Of a DNA stretch of 64,000 nt, positions 4,606-12,927 are shown one piece after another. The notes under the pieces are model-generated. The model was not told the origin of the DNA. It saw only the letters and a list, made by a program, of their open reading frames with translations, and made no database searches. Every line of letters starts with the position of its first letter. Positions within the stretch are counted from its first letter, which is position 1. Source of the DNA: an uncultured archaeon. Lineage in GTDB: Archaea; Thermoproteota; Nitrososphaeria; Nitrososphaerales; Gagatemarchaeaceae. The stretch is from positions 928,001 through 992,000 of the forward strand of contig CAWFOU010000001.1 in the NCBI GenBank assembly GCA_963817525.1. The letters run 5' to 3'. The position numbers and the translations under genes were made by a program.

Positions 4606-7600
4606 CTAAAAGCCGTAGAGCATGTCCTTCGCGGAGCGGATGGCGACTATCTCTTCGAGGGCCTGCAGGTCGTCCGGGGAGAGGGTGGACGCGTACTTGC
4701 CCTTTAGGATCTTCGCGTCGTGGCTCGTGGGGATCGAGTAGAGGTCCTCGTCCTCCTTGATCGTCCTGCCGAGGGTGGGGCCCTTCACCGAGATGGCCAC
4801 CTGCATACCCTTCCCGGCCTCCGCGATGTTCTTGCCGTTCTCCTGGATCTGCTCGACCACTCCCACCTCCTCCCCCTTCTGGTTCATCAGCCGCACCTTG
4901 GGGCGTAGCCGCCCCGCGAGGACCTCGACCCCGAAGACCGCGGGGTCGTTCCTCCTGAAGAAGTTCCCCTTCAGGGCCTTCACCTTGGCGGGCATCGTCA
5001 CGCTCTGGAGCGCGGTCCTCTCGTCCTCCTCCTTCTCCTTCGCGGCCCACTGGACGTATCCCTCGACCGCGTCGTAGATGACCTCGGAAGTGATTATCTG
5101 GACGCGCTCCGCGCTCTCCTTCGCCTCGGGGAGGACCTTGACGTCGAACCCGATTATCGCGCCCAGGTATGGGTCGCGCTCGGCGACCGCCTCGGCCTCG
5201 ATTATCTCCGCCTTGGAGATGTCCCCGATGTCCGCTAGGCGGACGGGGATGGCCCGCTCCTCGAGCATCTTGAGGAGCGCCTCCAGGCCCCCGATGCTCC
5301 CCGCCTTGACGACGACCCCGACGCTGTCGCTCTTCCGCCTCAGGGTGCTCAGGTCCTTCTCGAGGTCTGTCTTCAGCGTCGCGAACTCGGCCTCGTCCCG
5401 GAAGGTCATGACCGCGGTCCCCGGGATGACCCCCTCGAGGTCGGGGCTGACCAGCTTGACTCCGGCGGCGGCGTAGACCTCTTCCACGGCGGTGAACTTG
5501 TCCCTCGGGTCGCGCATCTCGTCGAGGGGCTTGGGCATGAAGAGTGCCTTGACCTTGGTCTGCGCGGCCCCGTCGCGCTTCACTATCACTATCTTGTCGC
5601 CCACGTGGAGGGTCCCGTCGGTGAGGATGATGTTCGCGGTCTGCCCCATCCCGACCTCCTCCTGGAGCTCGAGGACTATGCCCTTCGACCTCCCCGAGAC
5701 GTCGGCCGCGCCCTGGGCGAGCTTGGTGGTCAGGAACTGCTGGGCGAGCCCGATGAGGACGGCGAGGAGCTCGGGGATGCCCACGCCGTACCTCGCTGAG
5801 ACGGGGACTATCGAGACCTGCTTGCGAAAGTCCTTGATGCGATAGAAGGCCTCCGCCTGGAAGCCAGCCCTGGAGAGCCCGCCGACGACGTTGTAGAGGC
5901 GCTCCTCGAGCTCGTCGTTCCACTCAGGGGGCTGCAGCTTGAGAGCGGCGGACAGCGCGATGCTCCCCTTGCCCGTCACGGTGTCCTTTCGCCAGCCCCT
6001 TATCATGTCCACCTTGTTGAGGGCGACCAGGAAGGGGACGTGCCTCTCCTTGAGTATCTCGATGCTCTCCATCGTCTGGTTCTCGAGGCCCTTCAGGACG
6101 TCGACCAGGAGGATGGCGATGTCAGCGGCAGAGCCGCCGCGCATCCTCAGGTTGGAGAAGACCTCGTGCCCCGGCGTGTCGATGACGAGCAGGCCCGGGA
6201 TCTTCAGCGAGCCCCCCGTTTTCGAGAGAAGGGGGCCGCATATCGCCTCGAGTGTCTCCATCGGGAAGAAGCTGGCGCCGATCTCCTGGGTGATCCCGCC
6301 CGCCTCGCGGGCCTGGACCCCCGTCCCTCTTATTTTGTCGAGAAGAGATGTGTTGTGGATTATCAGGCTGTTGCCAAGGAAGTTGTGATAGTCGTCGACC
6401 GTGAAGTCGTAGACGTCGCATGCCCCTTCGATCACCTGCAAGCCCGAGACTTGGACGCTGGCGTAGTTGTTGATGGTCTCGACGAGAGCCTTGCTGTCGT
6501 AGCCGGGGAGCGCTTGGGGGAGGTGCCTTACGACGTCCCGGCTTATCTTCGAGCGCGTCTGAAAGGTGCTGATCTGGAAGTGCTCGTCCCAGTTGACCCT
6601 CTGACCTTCCCTGATCTTCCTTAGGAACTCACCGGGTATGGGGGTGATGTCGAAGACCCGGTTCGTCTCGGATGTCTGCGTCTTGATCTTTGCTGCCAGC
6701 ATCTTCTCTTTTTCCCCAAAGCCGATCTGGTCGACGAAAGCCCTGACGTTGTCCCTCCCGCTGATGAATACCTCTCTGCTATGGCCGCCCTTCCCGAAAT
6801 AGGCCAGGCAGCCGAACCTCGCGAGCAGCATCGGCAGTTGCCTCATCAGCTCCGCGCCCTCGCACCCGACCCCGATGTTCCTCCCTTCCTGGACGAAACC
6901 TTCCGCGTCGAAGAATCCGCGGAGGAACTTTGCGACGACGGGATCCGGCATCATCGAGATGGTGTCCGGGACGTGGATTGACCTGCTCTTGTCAGCCGTC
7001 GGATAGTCGAAGACCTCCACGAGGAACCGGTGAAGCGACTTGCCACCCTTGTGGCTCACGATGAAGCTCGTCCGGCGCCATGCCTTGCTCGCTCCCACGC
7101 CAAAGGGCAGTTCGAGGTTGATGAGGAAAAGGTCCATCAAGTAAGTGGACGTGTTGGCAAGGTACCCAGATTCCGCGACGCCGTCCCCGAAAAGCAGGCC
7201 GACGAGATACGCTAGGGCCTCGAATCCCTTCTCGTCCTTTGGCACCGCTATCCACGGTGATCGGTGGGAGGCGCGTCTCTTTCGAGAGGCGAACTTCACG
7301 CCTTCGACTTGGTCGTAGGCGTCGGCCAGGGAGATCCCCACCTCCTTGACCGCGTTCCGAAACACGCTCGCTCTGAAGTATCCTTGCTCGAGGTGAAAGA
7401 TGAACTGGGAGTCCCCGAGGTCCTTCCCAACCCTTTGCCTTCGTCCGTTCGAGAAGGCGACCAGCTTGGCTACGAGAGGTTGGGAGGCTCTGACCAGGAA
7501 ATCGTCGGAGAGTCTGGCCAGGATCCTCGACTTGACGGCCTCTAGCCCGTTTGAGGTGACGTTGACCCTCGCGGGGATCACAAGGTGGTCGCCTAGCGAC

Positions 7601-7989
7601 AGACGCTGGGCTTCTACATAGGAGAGCTCCCCGTTGGCAGACATGGCGAGGAACTTGTGCTCGGGGGTGCACCTGACGGCGTAGCCTGCTTTGGTCGTGA
7701 CCTCGATAAGCCGGTCGGCCCTGAGCTTCCAGACGTGCGACGCTCGTTTGGCTATGACCCTACCTTCCGGCGAGGTCGATAGTAGTTCCAAACCCTTCGC
7801 TTCGAAGGAGACGCCGTCTGGTCTTTCGATAGGTTGGCCTGACTTGAATTCCTGGAAGAGCGCGTCCGCCCTGGCCACCCTACCGTCCGCAAGTTGGATG
7901 AGAGTGTCAGCGCTGACGCACTTGCCGGCATCCGTGTGCCCCAGCACGACTACGACTGGTTGTCGGAGTTTTTGTTCTGACTGGGACAT
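4606..7989 (-). CDS. infB: Translation initiation factor aIF5B (IF2), intein-containing
   Basis: LRQPVVVVLGHTDAGK|intein|TSLLDKIRGT, EAGGITQEIGA, IDTPGHE, NKVD. Confidence 0.96.
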   Translation of the reverse strand: MSQSEQKLRQPVVVVLGHTDAGKCVSADTLIQLADGRVARADALFQEFKSGQPIERPDGVSFEAKGLELLSTSPEGRVIAKRASHVWKLRADRLIEVTTKAGYAVRCTPEHKFLAMSANGELSYVEAQRLSLGDHLVIPARVNVTSNGLEAVKSRILARLSDDFLVRASQPLVAKLVAFSNGRRQRVGKDLGDSQFIFHLEQGYFRASVFRNAVKEVGISLADAYDQVEGVKFASRKRRASHRSPWIAVPKDEKGFEALAYLVGLLFGDGVAESGYLANTSTYLMDLFLINLELPFGVGASKAWRRTSFIVSHKGGKSLHRFLVEVFDYPTADKSRSIHVPDTISMMPDPVVAKFLRGFFDAEGFVQEGRNIGVGCEGAELMRQLPMLLARFGCLAYFGKGGHSREVFISGRDNVRAFVDQIGFGEKEKMLAAKIKTQTSETNRVFDITPIPGEFLRKIREGQRVNWDEHFQISTFQTRSKISRDVVRHLPQALPGYDSKALVETINNYASVQVSGLQVIEGACDVYDFTVDDYHNFLGNSLIIHNTSLLDKIRGTGVQAREAGGITQEIGASFFPMETLEAICGPLLSKTGGSLKIPGLLVIDTPGHEVFSNLRMRGGSAADIAILLVDVLKGLENQTMESIEILKERHVPFLVALNKVDMIRGWRKDTVTGKGSIALSAALKLQPPEWNDELEERLYNVVGGLSRAGFQAEAFYRIKDFRKQVSIVPVSARYGVGIPELLAVLIGLAQQFLTTKLAQGAADVSGRSKGIVLELQEEVGMGQTANIILTDGTLHVGDKIVIVKRDGAAQTKVKALFMPKPLDEMRDPRDKFTAVEEVYAAAGVKLVSPDLEGVIPGTAVMTFRDEAEFATLKTDLEKDLSTLRRKSDSVGVVVKAGSIGGLEALLKMLEERAIPVRLADIGDISKAEIIEAEAVAERDPYLGAIIGFDVKVLPEAKESAERVQIITSEVIYDAVEGYVQWAAKEKEEDERTALQSVTMPAKVKALKGNFFRRNDPAVFGVEVLAGRLRPKVRLMNQKGEEVGVVEQIQENGKNIAEAGKGMQVAISVKGPTLGRTIKEDEDLYSIPTSHDAKILKGKYASTLSPDDLQALEEIVAIRSAKDMLYGF
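6352..7920 (-). mobile_element. Intein (523 aa) with LAGLIDADG homing endonuclease in the aIF5B P-loop
   Basis: Starts CVSADT, block B TPEHKF, ends VYDFTV...HNFLGNSLIIHN followed by T; LVGLLFGDG and FLRGFFDAEG motifs. Confidence 0.95.
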
Positions 7990-8040: not shown

Positions 8041-8499
8041 CTAGGCGCCGGGCACGGTGAACAGGGCCGATGTGGGGAGGGAGATCGCCACGCCTGAGAA
8101 GGCGACCGCGAAGAAGGTGGCATTGTATGTGCCAGCGGCGAGCCCGAACTCTACCAGCTGGGCGGCGACTATTGCCCCGGGCGCGATGGTCGCGGTGGCC
8201 TCTGAGAAGTAGACCATCTGGCTGGAGTTGTTTCGAAGCACCATGAACACTATCCCAGTCACGCCGACGGTCAGGTGGTTGCTGTAGGACACCGTGTCGG
8301 CCGTGCCGAGCGGTCCGACGCCGGGCGCCGGCGCCCCGACCATCGTCCAGACCGTCGTCCCACCCACGAAGGTGTCCGCCGAAGCGGCCGCGGCTGAGCT
8401 CAGTACGAGTAGCGCCGCGATGGCGAGGCCCGCCGTGAGGGAGGAGTTCACGTAGGTCGGAGAGGGGCGGAGCGTTTTATCTCTTGCGAAAGAGCGCAC
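8041..8499 (-). CDS. Secreted/membrane-anchored hypothetical protein
   Basis: Hydrophobic signal (AGLAIAALLVLSSAAAASA) followed by a beta-rich domain; start uncertain. Confidence 0.6.
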   Translation of the reverse strand: MRSFARDKTLRPSPTYVNSSLTAGLAIAALLVLSSAAAASADTFVGGTTVWTMVGAPAPGVGPLGTADTVSYSNHLTVGVTGIVFMVLRNNSSQMVYFSEATATIAPGAIVAAQLVEFGLAAGTYNATFFAVAFSGVAISLPTSALFTVPGA

Positions 8500-8566
8500 C
8501 GGGGCGGAGCTCCCGCTCGGTGTTGAAAAATAAAGGAGGAGAGCGAAAGGCTCGTAGCCTTTGCTC

Positions 8567-9622
8567 TTAGTTCTTGGCGCCGAACTTCAGAGGACCTAAC
8601 GAGAAGCCGTACTCTTGCTGCTGTGCGAGGAAGGTGCTCTCCACGCCGGTGAGCATGACCATGCACTTTACGCGGCCTTCGAGGGTTGGGTCCACGCGAG
8701 CGCCCCAGACGATCCTGACTCTTGGAGGTAGCGACTTGGTTACAAGTTCGCCTGCCTTGGTGACCTCCTCCAGCGTCACGTCCGAGCCGCCTGTCACGTG
8801 GACGAGTACCCCTTGAGACTTGGTCACGTCCCTGATGTCGAGCAGCTGACCTTCGATGGCTTGCCTGATTGCGACCTCTACCCTGTCGGAGCCCTTTGCC
8901 TCGCCGACACCGATGGCCGCCAGACCCTTGCGCTCACATATGGCGCGGAGGTCTGCGTAGTCGATGTTGATGAGGGAGGCTGTGGTGATGGTCTCGGTGA
9001 TGCCCTTCACGAACTGGCCTACCAGCTCGTTGGCAACTCCCAGCGCCTGCTGTAGTGGCAGGTCGCCTGCGACCTTGGACAGCTTGGTGTTGTCGATGGC
9101 CACGACGGTGTCACAGTACTGGCGGAGAACCTTCAGTGCGTTCTTCGCGTTGTCGTACCTGAACCTCTCTACAGAGAACGGCAGAGTCACGACGCCTATC
9201 ACTAGGCGGCCCTGCTTCTGCAGCTCCTTGGAGAGCACTTCTATCGCGCCCGTGCCGGTGCCTCCTCCGAGGCCTGCGCACAGGAAGATGATGTTGCTGT
9301 TTTGTGTTTCCTTCTGGAAGTCCTCAAGCGACTCCCTTGTCGCTGCCGCACCGCGCTGTGGGTACCCTCCGGCACCCTGGCCGTGCGTGAGCTTCTCACC
9401 GATTAGGATCCTGCGATCCGCCTTGGTGATGCTGAGGTGTGCTGCGTCTGTGTTGGCGGCAATGAGCTTACCGCCGGCGATGCCTCGTTCCTTGATCCAC
9501 GAGACAATGTTGCTTCCGGCTCCGCCGACACCTATGACGGTGACGTTTGGCTTTGCCATCCGCATCACTGCTGCGATCTTTTCGGCTTCTATGAAGTCCA
9601 TTCCTTCGTTGCTTACTTCCAT
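8567..9622 (-). CDS. ftsZ: Cell division GTPase FtsZ
   Basis: VIGVGGAGSN, ANTD, GLGGGTGTG tubulin signature, INIDYADL T7 loop. Confidence 0.96.
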   Translation of the reverse strand: MEVSNEGMDFIEAEKIAAVMRMAKPNVTVIGVGGAGSNIVSWIKERGIAGGKLIAANTDAAHLSITKADRRILIGEKLTHGQGAGGYPQRGAAATRESLEDFQKETQNSNIIFLCAGLGGGTGTGAIEVLSKELQKQGRLVIGVVTLPFSVERFRYDNAKNALKVLRQYCDTVVAIDNTKLSKVAGDLPLQQALGVANELVGQFVKGITETITTASLINIDYADLRAICERKGLAAIGVGEAKGSDRVEVAIRQAIEGQLLDIRDVTKSQGVLVHVTGGSDVTLEEVTKAGELVTKSLPPRVRIVWGARVDPTLEGRVKCMVMLTGVESTFLAQQQEYGFSLGPLKFGAKN

Positions 9623-9778
9623 CTTGACACTGCTATAGAAGAATTTTCTACATAACGCTTATGAATTCTGATAAGTTAACATCCGCCGAACACTAACCTA
9701 ACGCGGCATTCAGACACTTTTGTTAAAATAATTTGCTCAAGCTTATTAATGCCAAGCGAGTCCTTATCTTAACGTGTC

Positions 9779-10360
9779 TTGACGTCCGCCGAGCCGGCCG
9801 CGCAGCCCATAACCATCATAGAGCTCATGTCGGGCTGGGCCAGGGACAACGGAGTCATACTCAGGAGCAGGATACCCGCAGAGAAGAAGGTCCTGGCCGC
9901 GATAATGTGCGCATCGGGCTACACCTATCGTGACACGTCGAAGATACTCGGCGGGATCTCCCATGTCGCGGTGCACGACGCCCACAAGAACTTGATGGCG
10001 GCCCTGCCTCCTCTGCAAAAGAAGAGGAGGGAGGTGAACATAGAGGAGAACGTGGTCGACCTCAACGCCGAGACGAAGGCGGTGATTTGGCTGGCGAGGG
10101 ACGAAGACAGCGGGGAGATACTGTCCTTCCGCTGCTCCACGACCAGGTCTCCCATGGACCAGAAGAAGTTCATCGACTCCGTTCTCTCGGTGTGCACCGA
10201 AAGGCCCCTCCTCAAGGTGGAAAGGGGTTCGAGCTATCCGAATTCTCTGAGGCAGCTGGACCTATATTTCCAGATAGTGCCGACGGGCACCCCCATCAGG
10301 AAGAGGATAACGAGCTTCTTCCTAGGCGCTTCTGAGCCCGAGCCCAAAACGAAGAGCTAG
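9779..10360 (+). CDS. IS6-family transposase-like protein with HTH; DDE residues apparently substituted
   Basis: GYTYRDTSKILGGISHVAVH (HTH), IWLARDEDSGEIL...STTRS, VERGSSY, all resembling archaeal IS6 transposases by eye. Confidence 0.65.
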   Translation: MTSAEPAAQPITIIELMSGWARDNGVILRSRIPAEKKVLAAIMCASGYTYRDTSKILGGISHVAVHDAHKNLMAALPPLQKKRREVNIEENVVDLNAETKAVIWLARDEDSGEILSFRCSTTRSPMDQKKFIDSVLSVCTERPLLKVERGSSYPNSLRQLDLYFQIVPTGTPIRKRITSFFLGASEPEPKTKS

Positions 10361-10453
10361 AGAGGCCGTTAGGCCAACGAACTTTCGGGTGGGAGGGGCT
10401 CTAGGCCCTTTTGCGCTTCGGCCTCGGCCGGAGCGCGATGGACCTGAAGAGTA

Positions 10454-10819
10454 TCAAGCGGGAGGACATGCCCTCTCCAACACCATGCCTATCGCTCTGG
10501 TCCTTGCGGTCGCCATCTCCCCCTCCGTGCCGCACCTCGAGTAGCAGTCTGAGGCCCTCTGCACGAAGAAGAGCGCCTGCGAGACCTTGCGAGGCACGGG
10601 GGACGCGTCGCCCGCGAGGGTGAGCTGACCCGCCGTCTCGTACCAGAAGCCCGCCTCGGCGTTCTCGCCGACCTTCTCGAGGTCGCCCGCTATCCATTCG
10701 CAGACGCTGTCCCACTCGGAGGAGGCCTCGATGTCGTCGAGGACGCTCATCAATGATCTTACCGCACTACGATAGTCCCCCGTCTGCTCCAGCGCGAGGG
10801 CTCGCGATACTTGACCCAT
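10454..10819 (-). CDS. Helical-repeat (TPR/SNAP-like) hypothetical protein
   Basis: 121 aa with A..Y..A helical repeat pattern; codon usage like the host. Confidence 0.55.
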   Translation of the reverse strand: MGQVSRALALEQTGDYRSAVRSLMSVLDDIEASSEWDSVCEWIAGDLEKVGENAEAGFWYETAGQLTLAGDASPVPRKVSQALFFVQRASDCYSRCGTEGEMATARTRAIGMVLERACPPA

Positions 10820-11661: not shown

Positions 11662-12927
11662 GTGGCAGCCACAGACGACGTCGAGGACAAGGTGGCAGAC
11701 CACCTTGTCAAGAACGGCGACGACCTCCATTTCACTAGGTGGTTCTGGAAAGGGTGCGAACCCCTTCCAAGAGATGTGGCGGCCTATTCCAAATTCGCCG
11801 GGTTGGTTTCAGACTATTCGAAAGGAATCAAAATAGTCCCGGAGGGCATGGGGGTGGGATTGGGTTCGTCCGTATCGTGGGCCACTCAGACTACCATGCC
11901 CAAGCTTGGACACTATCTTACCGCCTTCATCAAGCTGGGAACTCCGGGGGAGGGAATGGTCTGGCTGACCATGGAGTGTACCCACGGTCAAGCTATTCCC
12001 GTGGGCCCTTTCCTTCAGGTCCCAAGCGAGGTTCGGTCTTGGAGAGATATTGAGCAGGCTTTGGCCCAAATCGGGTCTCCGGCAGACCACAATCCGCGAT
12101 TCAGCAAGGCGTATCTTTTTGGGTTTCTCGTGGGGATAATCATTGGCGACGCTCACAAGCCGAAACAAGGTCACAGCCATAGGCACATCAATGTCACACT
12201 AAGCAAAAGGTACGAGACGAATCTCTCAATCGGAGACTTCGCGACTTATTGCGCCAATCAACTTGGACTGCGGATGGAGAGAAAGCCGGATCTGCCAAAG
12301 CCAGAGGACAAGCCCTACGGATTCTATGTTTGGGCCTCCCAGTCCTCGCCTTTTGTCGACTGGATTTTCAATGTGGTCCTTGGCTTGGAAGATGGTCAAC
12401 ACACGACCTACGACGCTGTTCGGATGGACTGGGCATTTGAAGCGCCCCTCGACTTCCGACTAGGCATCATACACGGAATCGCCGAATCAGACGGCTCCGT
12501 GAGCGTGGCGAGTCAGACGGTCGAGTTCTGGGTGATTCCTGACTGGGACTTCATGATCAAGCTGCTCGCCACCTTTGGACTCAAGGGGTTTCGAAACAGA
12601 GAAGCCGTCTCGTTGGTAAAGACGCAGGCAACAGATTCCTTCAGGGTTCCGGTCTTCGCGGCGCATCTTCGGACGACCAGGTACGCCCTCCTGGAGCTTA
12701 TGGCGACGACGAGAAAGCTTGACAAGAAGGAAAGAATTCCCTCTGACGTTCGACAAGAGATAGTTCGACTCGCCGCGGAGGGTTGGTCGATTCCGAAGAT
12801 CATTGTTGAAATCGCTAGAACGCGGAAGCTACTAGTGTCCTTCGAGGCAGGACAGCGCTGGGCGAGGAAAAGCGGTAAGTATCAGCCTAAATCTAGGCAG
12901 CCTTCAAAAGAGGAAAATATTACGTAA
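11662..12927 (+). CDS. Free-standing double-motif LAGLIDADG endonuclease-like protein with C-terminal HTH
   Basis: FLVGIIIGDAH and IIHGIAESDGSV motifs; C-terminal IVRLAAEGWSIPKI...QRW; lower GC; antisense within an r-protein operon. Confidence 0.75.
   Translation: MAATDDVEDKVADHLVKNGDDLHFTRWFWKGCEPLPRDVAAYSKFAGLVSDYSKGIKIVPEGMGVGLGSSVSWATQTTMPKLGHYLTAFIKLGTPGEGMVWLTMECTHGQAIPVGPFLQVPSEVRSWRDIEQALAQIGSPADHNPRFSKAYLFGFLVGIIIGDAHKPKQGHSHRHINVTLSKRYETNLSIGDFATYCANQLGLRMERKPDLPKPEDKPYGFYVWASQSSPFVDWIFNVVLGLEDGQHTTYDAVRMDWAFEAPLDFRLGIIHGIAESDGSVSVASQTVEFWVIPDWDFMIKLLATFGLKGFRNREAVSLVKTQATDSFRVPVFAAHLRTTRYALLELMATTRKLDKKERIPSDVRQEIVRLAAEGWSIPKIIVEIARTRKLLVSFEAGQRWARKSGKYQPKSRQPSKEENIT

Follow-up and report, generated by a model that had tools for sequence, protein, structure and literature searches.

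The window analysed here is a 64-kb stretch of contig C1 in the genome assembly (G000) of an uncultured archaeon of the order Nitrososphaerales, family Gagatemarchaeaceae. Within it lies a gene derived from a transposase of the IS6 family of insertion sequences (IS), which stands head-to-head with an ftsZ gene across a short spacer. This gene, its product, and the transposon-end-like sites in the spacer are the subject of this report. The genes, domains, and codons concerned are the following:

8567 to 9622, minus strand: canonical ftsZ, paralogue 'a' (TIGR00065, 319 bits against a cut-off of 295; Tubulin and FtsZ_C domains; paralogue assigned from the FtsZ tree)
9623 to 9778, no strand: divergent spacer between ftsZ and the IS6-derived gene (156 bp, 37 % G+C), with transposon-end-like sites and two TATA-like boxes
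9779 to 10360, plus strand: IS6-derived, catalytically dead, C-terminally shortened gene (193 amino acids [aa], TTG start, uninterrupted open reading frame [ORF])
9815 to 10003, plus strand: N-terminal four-helix H-HTH (helix-helix-turn-helix) DNA-binding domain, residues 13-75
10031 to 10285, plus strand: RNase H-like (DDE-type) fold without catalytic residues, residues 85-169 (b1-b3, helix, b4, helix, b5 in the model; Foldseek)
10043 to 10045, plus strand: codon of E89, which aligns with the first catalytic D (hhalign)
10220 to 10222, plus strand: codon of E148, which aligns with the second catalytic D (hhalign)
10310 to 10312, plus strand: codon of T178, which aligns with the catalytic E and lies in the disordered tail of residues 171-193 (hhalign, AlphaFold2)

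Translation probably starts at the TTG at 9779, since the spacer alignment shows ATG at this position in the orthologues L003 and L087. The composition of the gene is host-like, its G+C of 0.58-0.60 matching the 0.607 of the genome. An earlier reading of the same DNA, made by eye and hereafter called the sequence-only reading, had described an uninterrupted 193-aa ORF of host-like character that shares an AT-rich divergent spacer of ~155 bp with ftsZ, and in all these respects it was borne out.

Single-family models recognise the protein poorly. NCBIfam NF033587 matches it at E 1.1e-7 and 31.8 bits (cut-off 125), and Pfam DDE_Tnp_IS240 (PF13610) at E 0.06 and 13.9 bits (cut-off 27), so that it scores under both curated IS6 cut-offs. 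We compared an alignment of 34 members of the IS6-derived family with one of 25 genuine IS6 transposases, a set gathered using the real IS6 transposase on contig C7 of the same assembly. The two profiles were matched by hhalign with a probability of 99.94 % and an E value of 3.6e-37 over 171 aligned columns, and by this profile-profile comparison the IS6 ancestry predicted for the window gene is unambiguous. In a tree, the 34 family members and 26 IS6 transposases split on one branch (SH-aLRT 95), with the five-copy IS of genome G019 as the nearest mobile relative and the gene of genome G154 as the deepest family member.

The same alignment pairs the IS6 residues D82, D141, E169, and K176 with E89, E148, T178, and nothing, respectively. 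In IS6/IS26 transposases, the DDE triad is described as being followed by K or R (PMC7986276). The alignment stops at IS6 position 173 of 224, and the window protein ends 15 residues past T178, while IS6 transposases continue for ~50 more; because the protein ends at residue 193, the K/R residue and these ~50 further residues have no counterpart. The triad is conserved nowhere in the family, whose consensus at the three positions is D/G/G. The first position holds E in eight of ten g1-type alignment rows (g1 being the window's genus) and D in the other two, with D in other genera except in G154 (E); the second holds G in 31 of the 33 other rows, and D in L101 and P0105. Single members retain differing vestiges of the ancestral motifs, such as DET plus IERW in G152 and DGGPW in G154. 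That a DDE triad might still be intact is ruled out by the residues found, namely, E89, E148, and T178, with no K/R residue after them. The sequence-only reading had called the triad apparently lost from the motifs IEEN, VERGSSY, and RITSFF aligned by eye, and had proposed alignment to DDE_Tnp_IS240 as a check. That model by itself gives only the weak match cited above, and it was the profile-profile alignment that confirmed the substitutions, with the same pairing.

The AlphaFold2 model of the window protein (pLDDT 84.4, pTM 0.76) has a b1-b2-b3-helix-b4-helix-b5 core, with E89 on b1 and E148 at the end of b4. The RNase H-like fold is thus kept, but the helix expected to carry the catalytic E is disordered, as are residues 171-193 as a whole (pLDDT <50). 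The top Foldseek matches of the model are DDE enzymes: the ISCth4 transposase (6xgx_A, E 8e-5), then Mu, TnsB, retroviral integrases, and Mos1. The N-terminal domain is modelled with a pLDDT of >90 as four helices (residues 13-23, 34-45, 50-57, and 62-75), and the profile-profile alignment extends along the entire H-HTH domain of IS6 transposases. Its invariant residues in the family alignment are K37, A41, G47, R51, and S61. Retention of the HTH, likewise claimed from the letters by eye, is therefore upheld by both the alignment and the confident model helices.

The distribution of the gene is that of a chromosomal locus. Its own genome has a single copy, aside from a genuine IS6, 33 % identical, that lies on a separate contig. 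In this one Nitrososphaerales family of soil archaea, 32 of 61 genomes carry it, one copy each: 9 of 22 in g1, 16 of 20 in g2, 3 of 3 in g65, 2 of 6 in g5, 1 of 3 in g66, and the single genome of g68, with none found in g3, g4, g67, or g69. Matches elsewhere in the order represent real IS6 copies, being weaker, present several times over, and in many cases broken (the order-wide tally takes in one unpublished genome, G108, on which no result rests). The extracted orthologous ORFs are all open; apparent internal stops are matches whose query range passes the shorter orthologues' own stop codon. The gene neighbourhood is conserved among orthologues, and positions are not variable. A frame change at the 3' end of the gene in G177 (locus L088) replaces the last ~20 residues and lengthens the ORF to 248 aa, from which the disordered tail seems dispensable.

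Selection on the gene was estimated by the NG86 method as omega (dN/dS). The median among nine congeners is 0.18 (36 pairs; dN 0.20, dS 1.18), compared with 0.125 for ftsZ, and by region omega is 0.10 (g1) and 0.16 (g2) in the HTH part, where it is lowest, 0.18 in both genera in the RNase H-like part, and 0.29 (g1) and 0.57 (g2) in the tail, all of these values being rough since dS, at 1.1-1.4, is near saturation. Rough as they are, these values exclude neutral decay. The sequence-only reading had suggested exaptation without decay and named dN/dS in related genomes as a check and multiple copies as a finding that would speak against it; the purifying selection, the one copy per genome in 32 of 61 genomes, the open orthologous ORFs, and the conserved neighbours all agree with that suggestion.

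A protein database contains 105 homologues, none with a recorded Pfam domain and most of them each known from just one contig; in contrast, most of 120 listed IS6 transposases carry PF13610. The family is also small, because a profile search of 1.84 billion representatives (a library without taxonomy) returned only 13 clusters at E <= 1e-30.

Nor does the gene have the boundaries of an element. At 25 of 28 orthologous loci, there is no repeat-core match in the last 60 nt of the gene plus the 400 nt after it, and neither a target duplication nor an inverted-repeat pair flanking the gene was found at the gene. IS6 elements carry inverted terminal repeats of 15-20 bp at both ends within a target duplication, a combination that the genuine IS6 of this assembly displays and the window gene lacks. 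The protein is also short, at 193 aa compared with 213-254 aa for IS6/IS26 transposases in elements of ~700-900 bp. A gene that is transposase-derived, immobile, single-copy at orthologous positions, and under purifying selection after loss of catalysis is what is meant by a domesticated gene, and we hold with high confidence that the IS6-derived gene is one, and not an IS. In the history that we envisage, an ancestral IS6 element would have lost its 3' end (the last ~50 transposase residues and the right terminal repeat) and its catalytic residues, and the remnant would have become a vertically inherited host gene in one Nitrososphaerales family.

The converse, a still-active if unusual IS6 transposase, has in its favor the clear IS6 ancestry and the fact that, in the window, two of the three triad positions are still acidic (E89 and E148). 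It is contradicted by the missing third residue and C-terminal helix, by the G at the second position in nearly all other rows, and by a single-copy, syntenic gene with no right end and no target duplication, and we consider it next to impossible.

A relative's copy of the gene occurs among metatranscriptome contigs. Metatranscriptome X16 contains a 538-nt contig 88 % identical to 9788-10325, and X15 a 152-nt contig, although such contigs show presence in an RNA library only. In four metatranscriptome runs, the spacer at 9640-9767 was uncovered and no contig joined ftsZ and the gene, contigs being silent on transcript ends.

An 8-bp target duplication is an IS6 family trait. The genuine IS6 of this assembly, on contig C7, is 767 bp long; it has terminal repeats of 14 bp that match perfectly, and a target duplication of 8 bp flanks it. 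Its terminal repeat (GATACCGTTAAGAT) and those of two related mobile elements, the IS6 of G019 (GATGTTGTTAGGATA) and that of G095 (AGAGCTTGTCAACTTAACTT), have the common core GTYARSWT, a pattern that rests on three IS elements with repeats aligned by eye on cTGTt. The latter is given as the terminal-repeat motif of the IS6 family (PMC7986276).

The G019 element is present in five copies of 717 bp (L016 and L104-L107). The L016 transposase has an in-frame stop just before the E motif, within an apparent short duplicated peptide. Along its full length, the element shows 85-99.7 % identity in the remaining four copies, and the protein match ends at the same residue in three of them, so these four copies probably share the stop. 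Either the copies are inactivated and moved in trans, or the stop is read through.

The spacer of the window contains several sequences that resemble the IS6 terminal repeat, arranged around two TATA-like boxes:

9631 to 9641, plus strand: site 0, beside the ftsZ start (TGCTATAGAAG; decayed in the window; alignment of nine spacers)
9657 to 9666, no strand: GCTTATGAAT box between sites 0 and 1, the inferred ftsZ core promoter (minus strand) and the most conserved spacer block
9671 to 9681, minus strand: site 1, ~50 nt upstream of the ftsZ start (TGTTAACTTAT on the minus strand; matches GTYARSWT)
9693 to 9703, minus strand: site 2 (CGTTAGGTTAG on the minus strand; position conserved)
9720 to 9731, plus strand: site A, the vestigial left terminal repeat of the former IS (TTGTTAAAATAA)
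9741 to 9750, plus strand: GCTTATTAAT, the likely TATA box of the IS6-derived gene, between sites A and B (conserved in congeners; role from position)
9764 to 9774, minus strand: site B, ending 5 nt before the start codon (TTATCTTAACG on the plus strand; conserved in orthologues of all genera)

The concentration of the core pattern here is unusual. GTYARSWT matches 24 times in the window (16.5 expected), and five of the matches fall in 9621-9773; the spacer itself has four, a count reached by none of 2000 dinucleotide shuffles. Spacers of congeners (157-184 nt) have two to six matches in eight of nine cases, against a shuffle mean of 0.1-0.2, and in six of the nine the observed count was reached by none of 2000 shuffles. 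Genome-wide, the pattern occurs at 0.31 matches per kb, with four clusters of at least three matches within 120 nt, one of which is this spacer. The only other dense clusters (C7:93212-93305 and C7:1277613-1277709) each repeat a 10-bp palindrome-like motif (ATGTCAACAT / ATGTTGACAT) four times, at intervals of 15-45 nt, and are possibly origin-type sites or those of another regulator.

Sites A and B form an inverted pair that brackets the presumed promoter of the gene. Nine bases of site B are identical to the terminal repeat of the assembly's genuine IS6, and this 9-mer has eight occurrences in 2.8 Mb, two being IS ends. Outside g1, the pair reads YGTTAAGATAA, then TAWCTTAACR at 45-48 nt start to start, followed by the start codon, at 18 of 20 loci. 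By a looser test (GTTA[AG]N, then 36-50 nt, then [CT]T[AG]AC), an inverted pair lies upstream at 25 of 29 loci, while shuffles gave a mean of 0.4 loci and a maximum of 3; the gene thus has conserved, enriched site-like repeats at its own promoter, as expected of an autoregulated factor. The sequence-only reading had found no inverted repeats. This holds in the sense that no pair flanks the gene, but it is mistaken for the upstream side, where repeat cores are present. At up to two mismatches per half, the 2.8-Mb genome contains no pair of this kind besides A/B, and the idea of a genome-wide regulon in the window's genome was rejected on this ground.

A second pair, with 44-nt spacing, is found by the loose test in six of nine g1 genomes. 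Its halves are sites 0 and 1, and it brackets the GCTTATGAAT box, which resembles the box at 9741-9750. Site 0 reads GTTA[AG][GT]GTA[AG] in the eight other congeners, where its sequence (TGTTAGGGTAG) shares 10 of 11 bases with the G019 element's inner terminal repeat. The position of site 1 is conserved in the eight congeners other than L003, five of which show the strict pattern there; site 2 is a 6-1-6 palindrome (CGTTAAGTTAACG) in three congeners; and G152 has a site-1-like sequence ~60 nt upstream of its ftsZ start.

Genus g2, the largest after g1 among the genera concerned, has the strict pair pattern in 23 of 31 genomes (14 of the 14 of good quality), at one or two places each; a reversed control gave five hits in total. 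In the six genomes where both pairs are on one contig they lie 5-13 kb apart, and the second pair is beside uppP in the four loci examined (L128, L129, L131, and L133). The second pair, in G009, G056, G183, and G185, spans ~52 bp at about 1501-1552 in each locus, has the same repeat cores, and contains by eye a YTTGATAYGC-like internal motif. It is 5.8-13 kb from the IS6-derived gene in G056, G185, and G183 and ~90 nt upstream of pgk in G009 and G185.

Many transposases repress their own transcription at their own ends. The window protein retains the H-HTH end-binding domain plus a dead RNase H-like domain, both under purifying selection, and the DNA retains the core of the former left repeat as site A, with an inverted copy before the start codon as site B, bracketing the promoter. 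The protein would bind sites A and B through its H-HTH, repressing or tuning its own transcription, and we consider binding to the repeat-derived sites with autoregulation fairly likely. In g1, the ftsZ-a promoter is likewise enclosed by an inverted pair, made up of sites 0 and 1 and accompanied by site 2, and the protein would probably co-regulate ftsZ-a. The suggestion in the sequence-only reading that the protein is a regulator gains support from the transposon-end-like pairs at both promoters; binding itself is a prediction from these patterns.

The same sites could serve a different purpose. As a transposition inhibitor or immunity factor, the dead transposase would bind the ends of incoming IS6 elements or poison their transposase, and its own sites would be autoregulatory only. 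Element-encoded truncated inhibitors of transposition exist (Tn5 Inh, IS1 InsA), site B shares its nine bases with a genuine IS6 end, and family genomes are nearly without IS6, while genomes of other families have several, often broken matches (six in G004, seven in G005, five in G019, and five in G039). However, that cross-family comparison is confounded by relatedness, and low IS6 load does not track the gene, because the 29 family genomes without it likewise have no IS6 match (with this query at E <= 1e-5). An immunity factor would also have no need of the additional conserved sites at the ftsZ promoter and at the second syntenic place in g2. We therefore regard this explanation as rather unlikely.

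The link to ftsZ is close in some genera and absent in others. The family has three canonical FtsZ paralogue clades (a, b, and c) besides the divergent thaumarchaeal type, and all FtsZ linked to the IS6-derived gene belong to clade 'a' of the FtsZ tree. Paralogue 'a' is 94-96 % identical among congeners. In g1, 10 of 22 genomes have FtsZ-a, and nine of these have the IS6-derived gene head-to-head with it; the tenth (G165) has an ftsZ cut by a contig end, so the arrangement is found in 9 of 9 assessable genomes. The 12 g1 genomes without canonical FtsZ are also without the gene and carry only the divergent FtsZ-like protein. Outside g1, the head-to-head arrangement recurs in G152 (g66) and G154 (g68), for a total of 11 genomes in three genera. 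Elsewhere, the gene is 1.2 kb from ftsZ and convergent (G009), 4.4 kb away (G156), or on a contig separate from that of canonical ftsZ (four genomes outside g1). A further 15 genomes hold the gene with no canonical FtsZ found. An FtsZ search at E <= 1e-20 had returned nothing in five genomes and was rerun with the Pfam family and a looser cut-off, by which those five possess only the divergent FtsZ-like protein. Because 15 genomes keep the gene without canonical FtsZ, ftsZ cannot be its sole or original target and is a lineage-specific target at most. Synteny with ftsZ, which the sequence-only reading had put forward as a check, thus holds among the assessable congeners and in G152 and G154, and fails in these 15 carriers.

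Within g1, the two genes are part of a larger unit:

8041 to 10819, no single strand: four-gene block of orf152 (8041-8499, minus strand), ftsZ, the IS6-derived gene, and orf121 (10454-10819, minus strand), present or absent as a unit in the genus

In G144 and G184, congeners without canonical FtsZ, gene order is otherwise the same and aIF5B directly adjoins ndk, so the block is absent as a unit. The window's genome has canonical FtsZ at window 8567-9622, C1:485042-486088, and C1:1149321-1150298 (clades a, b, and c), which are 66-76 % identical to one another, and the divergent FtsZ-like protein at C1:65487-66209. Canonical FtsZ is patchy and cassette-like in a lineage usually associated with Cdv-based division.

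IS6/IS26 elements move adjacent DNA, and the gene could be the fossil of an IS6 that mobilised the ftsZ cassette, persisting by linkage or for a role unrelated to ftsZ. The all-or-none behavior of the block within one genus, the patchiness of canonical FtsZ with up to three paralogues, and the orientation of all the repeat-like sites toward ftsZ fit this history. We found no repeats or inverted repeats at the borders of the block, the gene persists where canonical ftsZ is missing, and a relic with no function is ruled out, because both domains are constrained and omega is 0.18 between genera whose dS is saturated. Taken as a full explanation, the fossil vehicle is unlikely, but a gene that began as a vehicle could be a regulator today.

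The sequence-only reading had offered, as a second suggestion, a nucleoid partner of FtsZ-based division. This would be a DNA-anchored factor of nucleoid-occlusion-like or centromere-like type, bound at a few sites on the chromosome and in direct contact with FtsZ. The only points on its side are the adjacency to ftsZ and, in g2, a CdvA-like gene (PF18822, 76 bits) within two genes of the IS6-derived gene at 4 of 10 loci. A CdvA search found such a gene in only two of five congeners and not in the window's genome. Persistence of the IS6-derived gene in genomes without canonical FtsZ speaks against direct contact, and the location of the sites, at promoters, agrees with a role in controlling transcription, so that such an anchor appears very unlikely. 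The usual upstream neighbour in g2 is an AN1-zinc-finger/M50 peptidase gene (7 of 10 loci, among them L033, L037, and L041). Its counterpart in the window's genome, at C1:487434-488204, is 1.3 kb from FtsZ paralogue b, which suggests an older ftsZ-M50 neighbourhood.

On balance, we favor a reading in which a dead HTH protein acts on operators derived from transposon ends, regulating itself and probably ftsZ. Taken separately, regulation of ftsZ is a serious possibility but not one on which we would count. Several observations weigh against this reading, besides the saturated dS, the by-eye basis of GTYARSWT, and the 15 carriers without canonical FtsZ. The L003 spacer has only one GTYARSWT match, as has (by the strict pattern) that of the deepest-branching member, G154, which also stands beside ftsZ; the congeners L003 and L088 have no pair by the loose test; the window's own site 0 has 4 of 11 bases changed; and G135 has a pair of the second type with no detectable copy of the IS6-derived gene. 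The genuine IS6 used for comparison may not share a cell with contig C1, because contig C7 sits in a bin of 8.75 % contamination. Finally, the 9 of 9 adjacency in g1 is perhaps inherited gene order and not selected linkage, because congeners are kin.

It is also conceivable that the left-end module of the IS6 (protein, repeat operators, and promoter) is a switch whose duplicate drives and controls a cassette-like ftsZ paralogue. Local alignment of the two spacer halves beats shuffles in four of nine congeners (7, 2, 5, and 5 of 500 shuffles) and is not significant in five, which gives only a hint of a possible tandem duplication of the module within the spacer. We offer this extension tentatively and think it doubtful.

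Compared with known systems, the locus shares with IS6/IS26 elements (PF13610, NF033587; those of C7 and G019) its ancestry, the H-HTH plus RNase H-like architecture, the order left repeat, promoter, gene, and the repeat core. Unlike them, the window gene has no DDE triad, K/R residue, ~50 C-terminal residues, right end, or target duplication, and it is single-copy, syntenic, under purifying selection, and below both curated cut-offs. Tn5 Inh, IS1 InsA, and IS911 OrfA are shortened or inactive transposases that bind the ends of their element and repress its promoter; these are made by a mobile element, whereas the window gene is fixed in the chromosome with no element around it.

Eukaryotes offer well-documented cases of DDE transposases taken over by the host as DNA-binding proteins, and CENP-B and SETMAR are examples. 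FHY3/FAR1 are described as another such case (PMC6000157). As far as these accounts go, they are likewise domesticated DDE transposases that kept the end-binding domain and have sites descended from transposon ends, but they are eukaryotic, belong to other superfamilies, and are much larger than the window protein. In prokaryotes, the documented cases are mainly TnpB-derived RNA-guided repressors. The closest prokaryotic parallel that we found is TldR, outlined as TnpB-like nuclease-dead repressors (bioRxiv 10.1101/2023.11.30.569447). As there described, it too is a transposon-encoded nuclease without catalysis that a prokaryotic host recruited as a site-specific transcription factor acting on a few genes, the role that we propose for the window protein. 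TldR is of RuvC-type TnpB origin and RNA-guided, while the window protein is of DDE origin and would use its own HTH on repeat-derived sites in an archaeal host.

Full-text literature searches returned no IS6-derived domesticated protein, no archaeal case, and no earlier description of this gene; 'domesticat' does not occur in the IS6 review, nor FtsZ in the Gagatemarchaeaceae paper. What is new here is a protein-only archaeal case in which the dead transposase and the operator sites apparently descended from its repeats are both legible in the sequence, and a 193-aa protein and 156 bp of DNA are enough to test it directly. The locus also bears on an open question in archaeal cell biology, in that some family members carry one to three canonical FtsZ besides the divergent FtsZ-like protein, and the FtsZ paralogue beside the IS6-derived gene is gained or lost together with it. 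If the reading with a duplicated left-end module is true, an archaeal cell-division gene would owe its regulator as well as its promoter to a transposon.

Two other genes of the window deserve mention. The aIF5B/IF2 gene (4606-7989, minus strand) encodes 1127 aa, of which residues ~31-545 have no counterpart in the orthologues of G118, G144, and G184; the extra segment fits a putative intein insertion private to the window's genome. Between L24e/ndk and L7Ae, at 11662-12927 (plus strand), lies a 421-aa ORF with no Pfam hit and 52-61 % identity in congeners, in which candidate LAGLIDADG-like motifs can be seen by eye.

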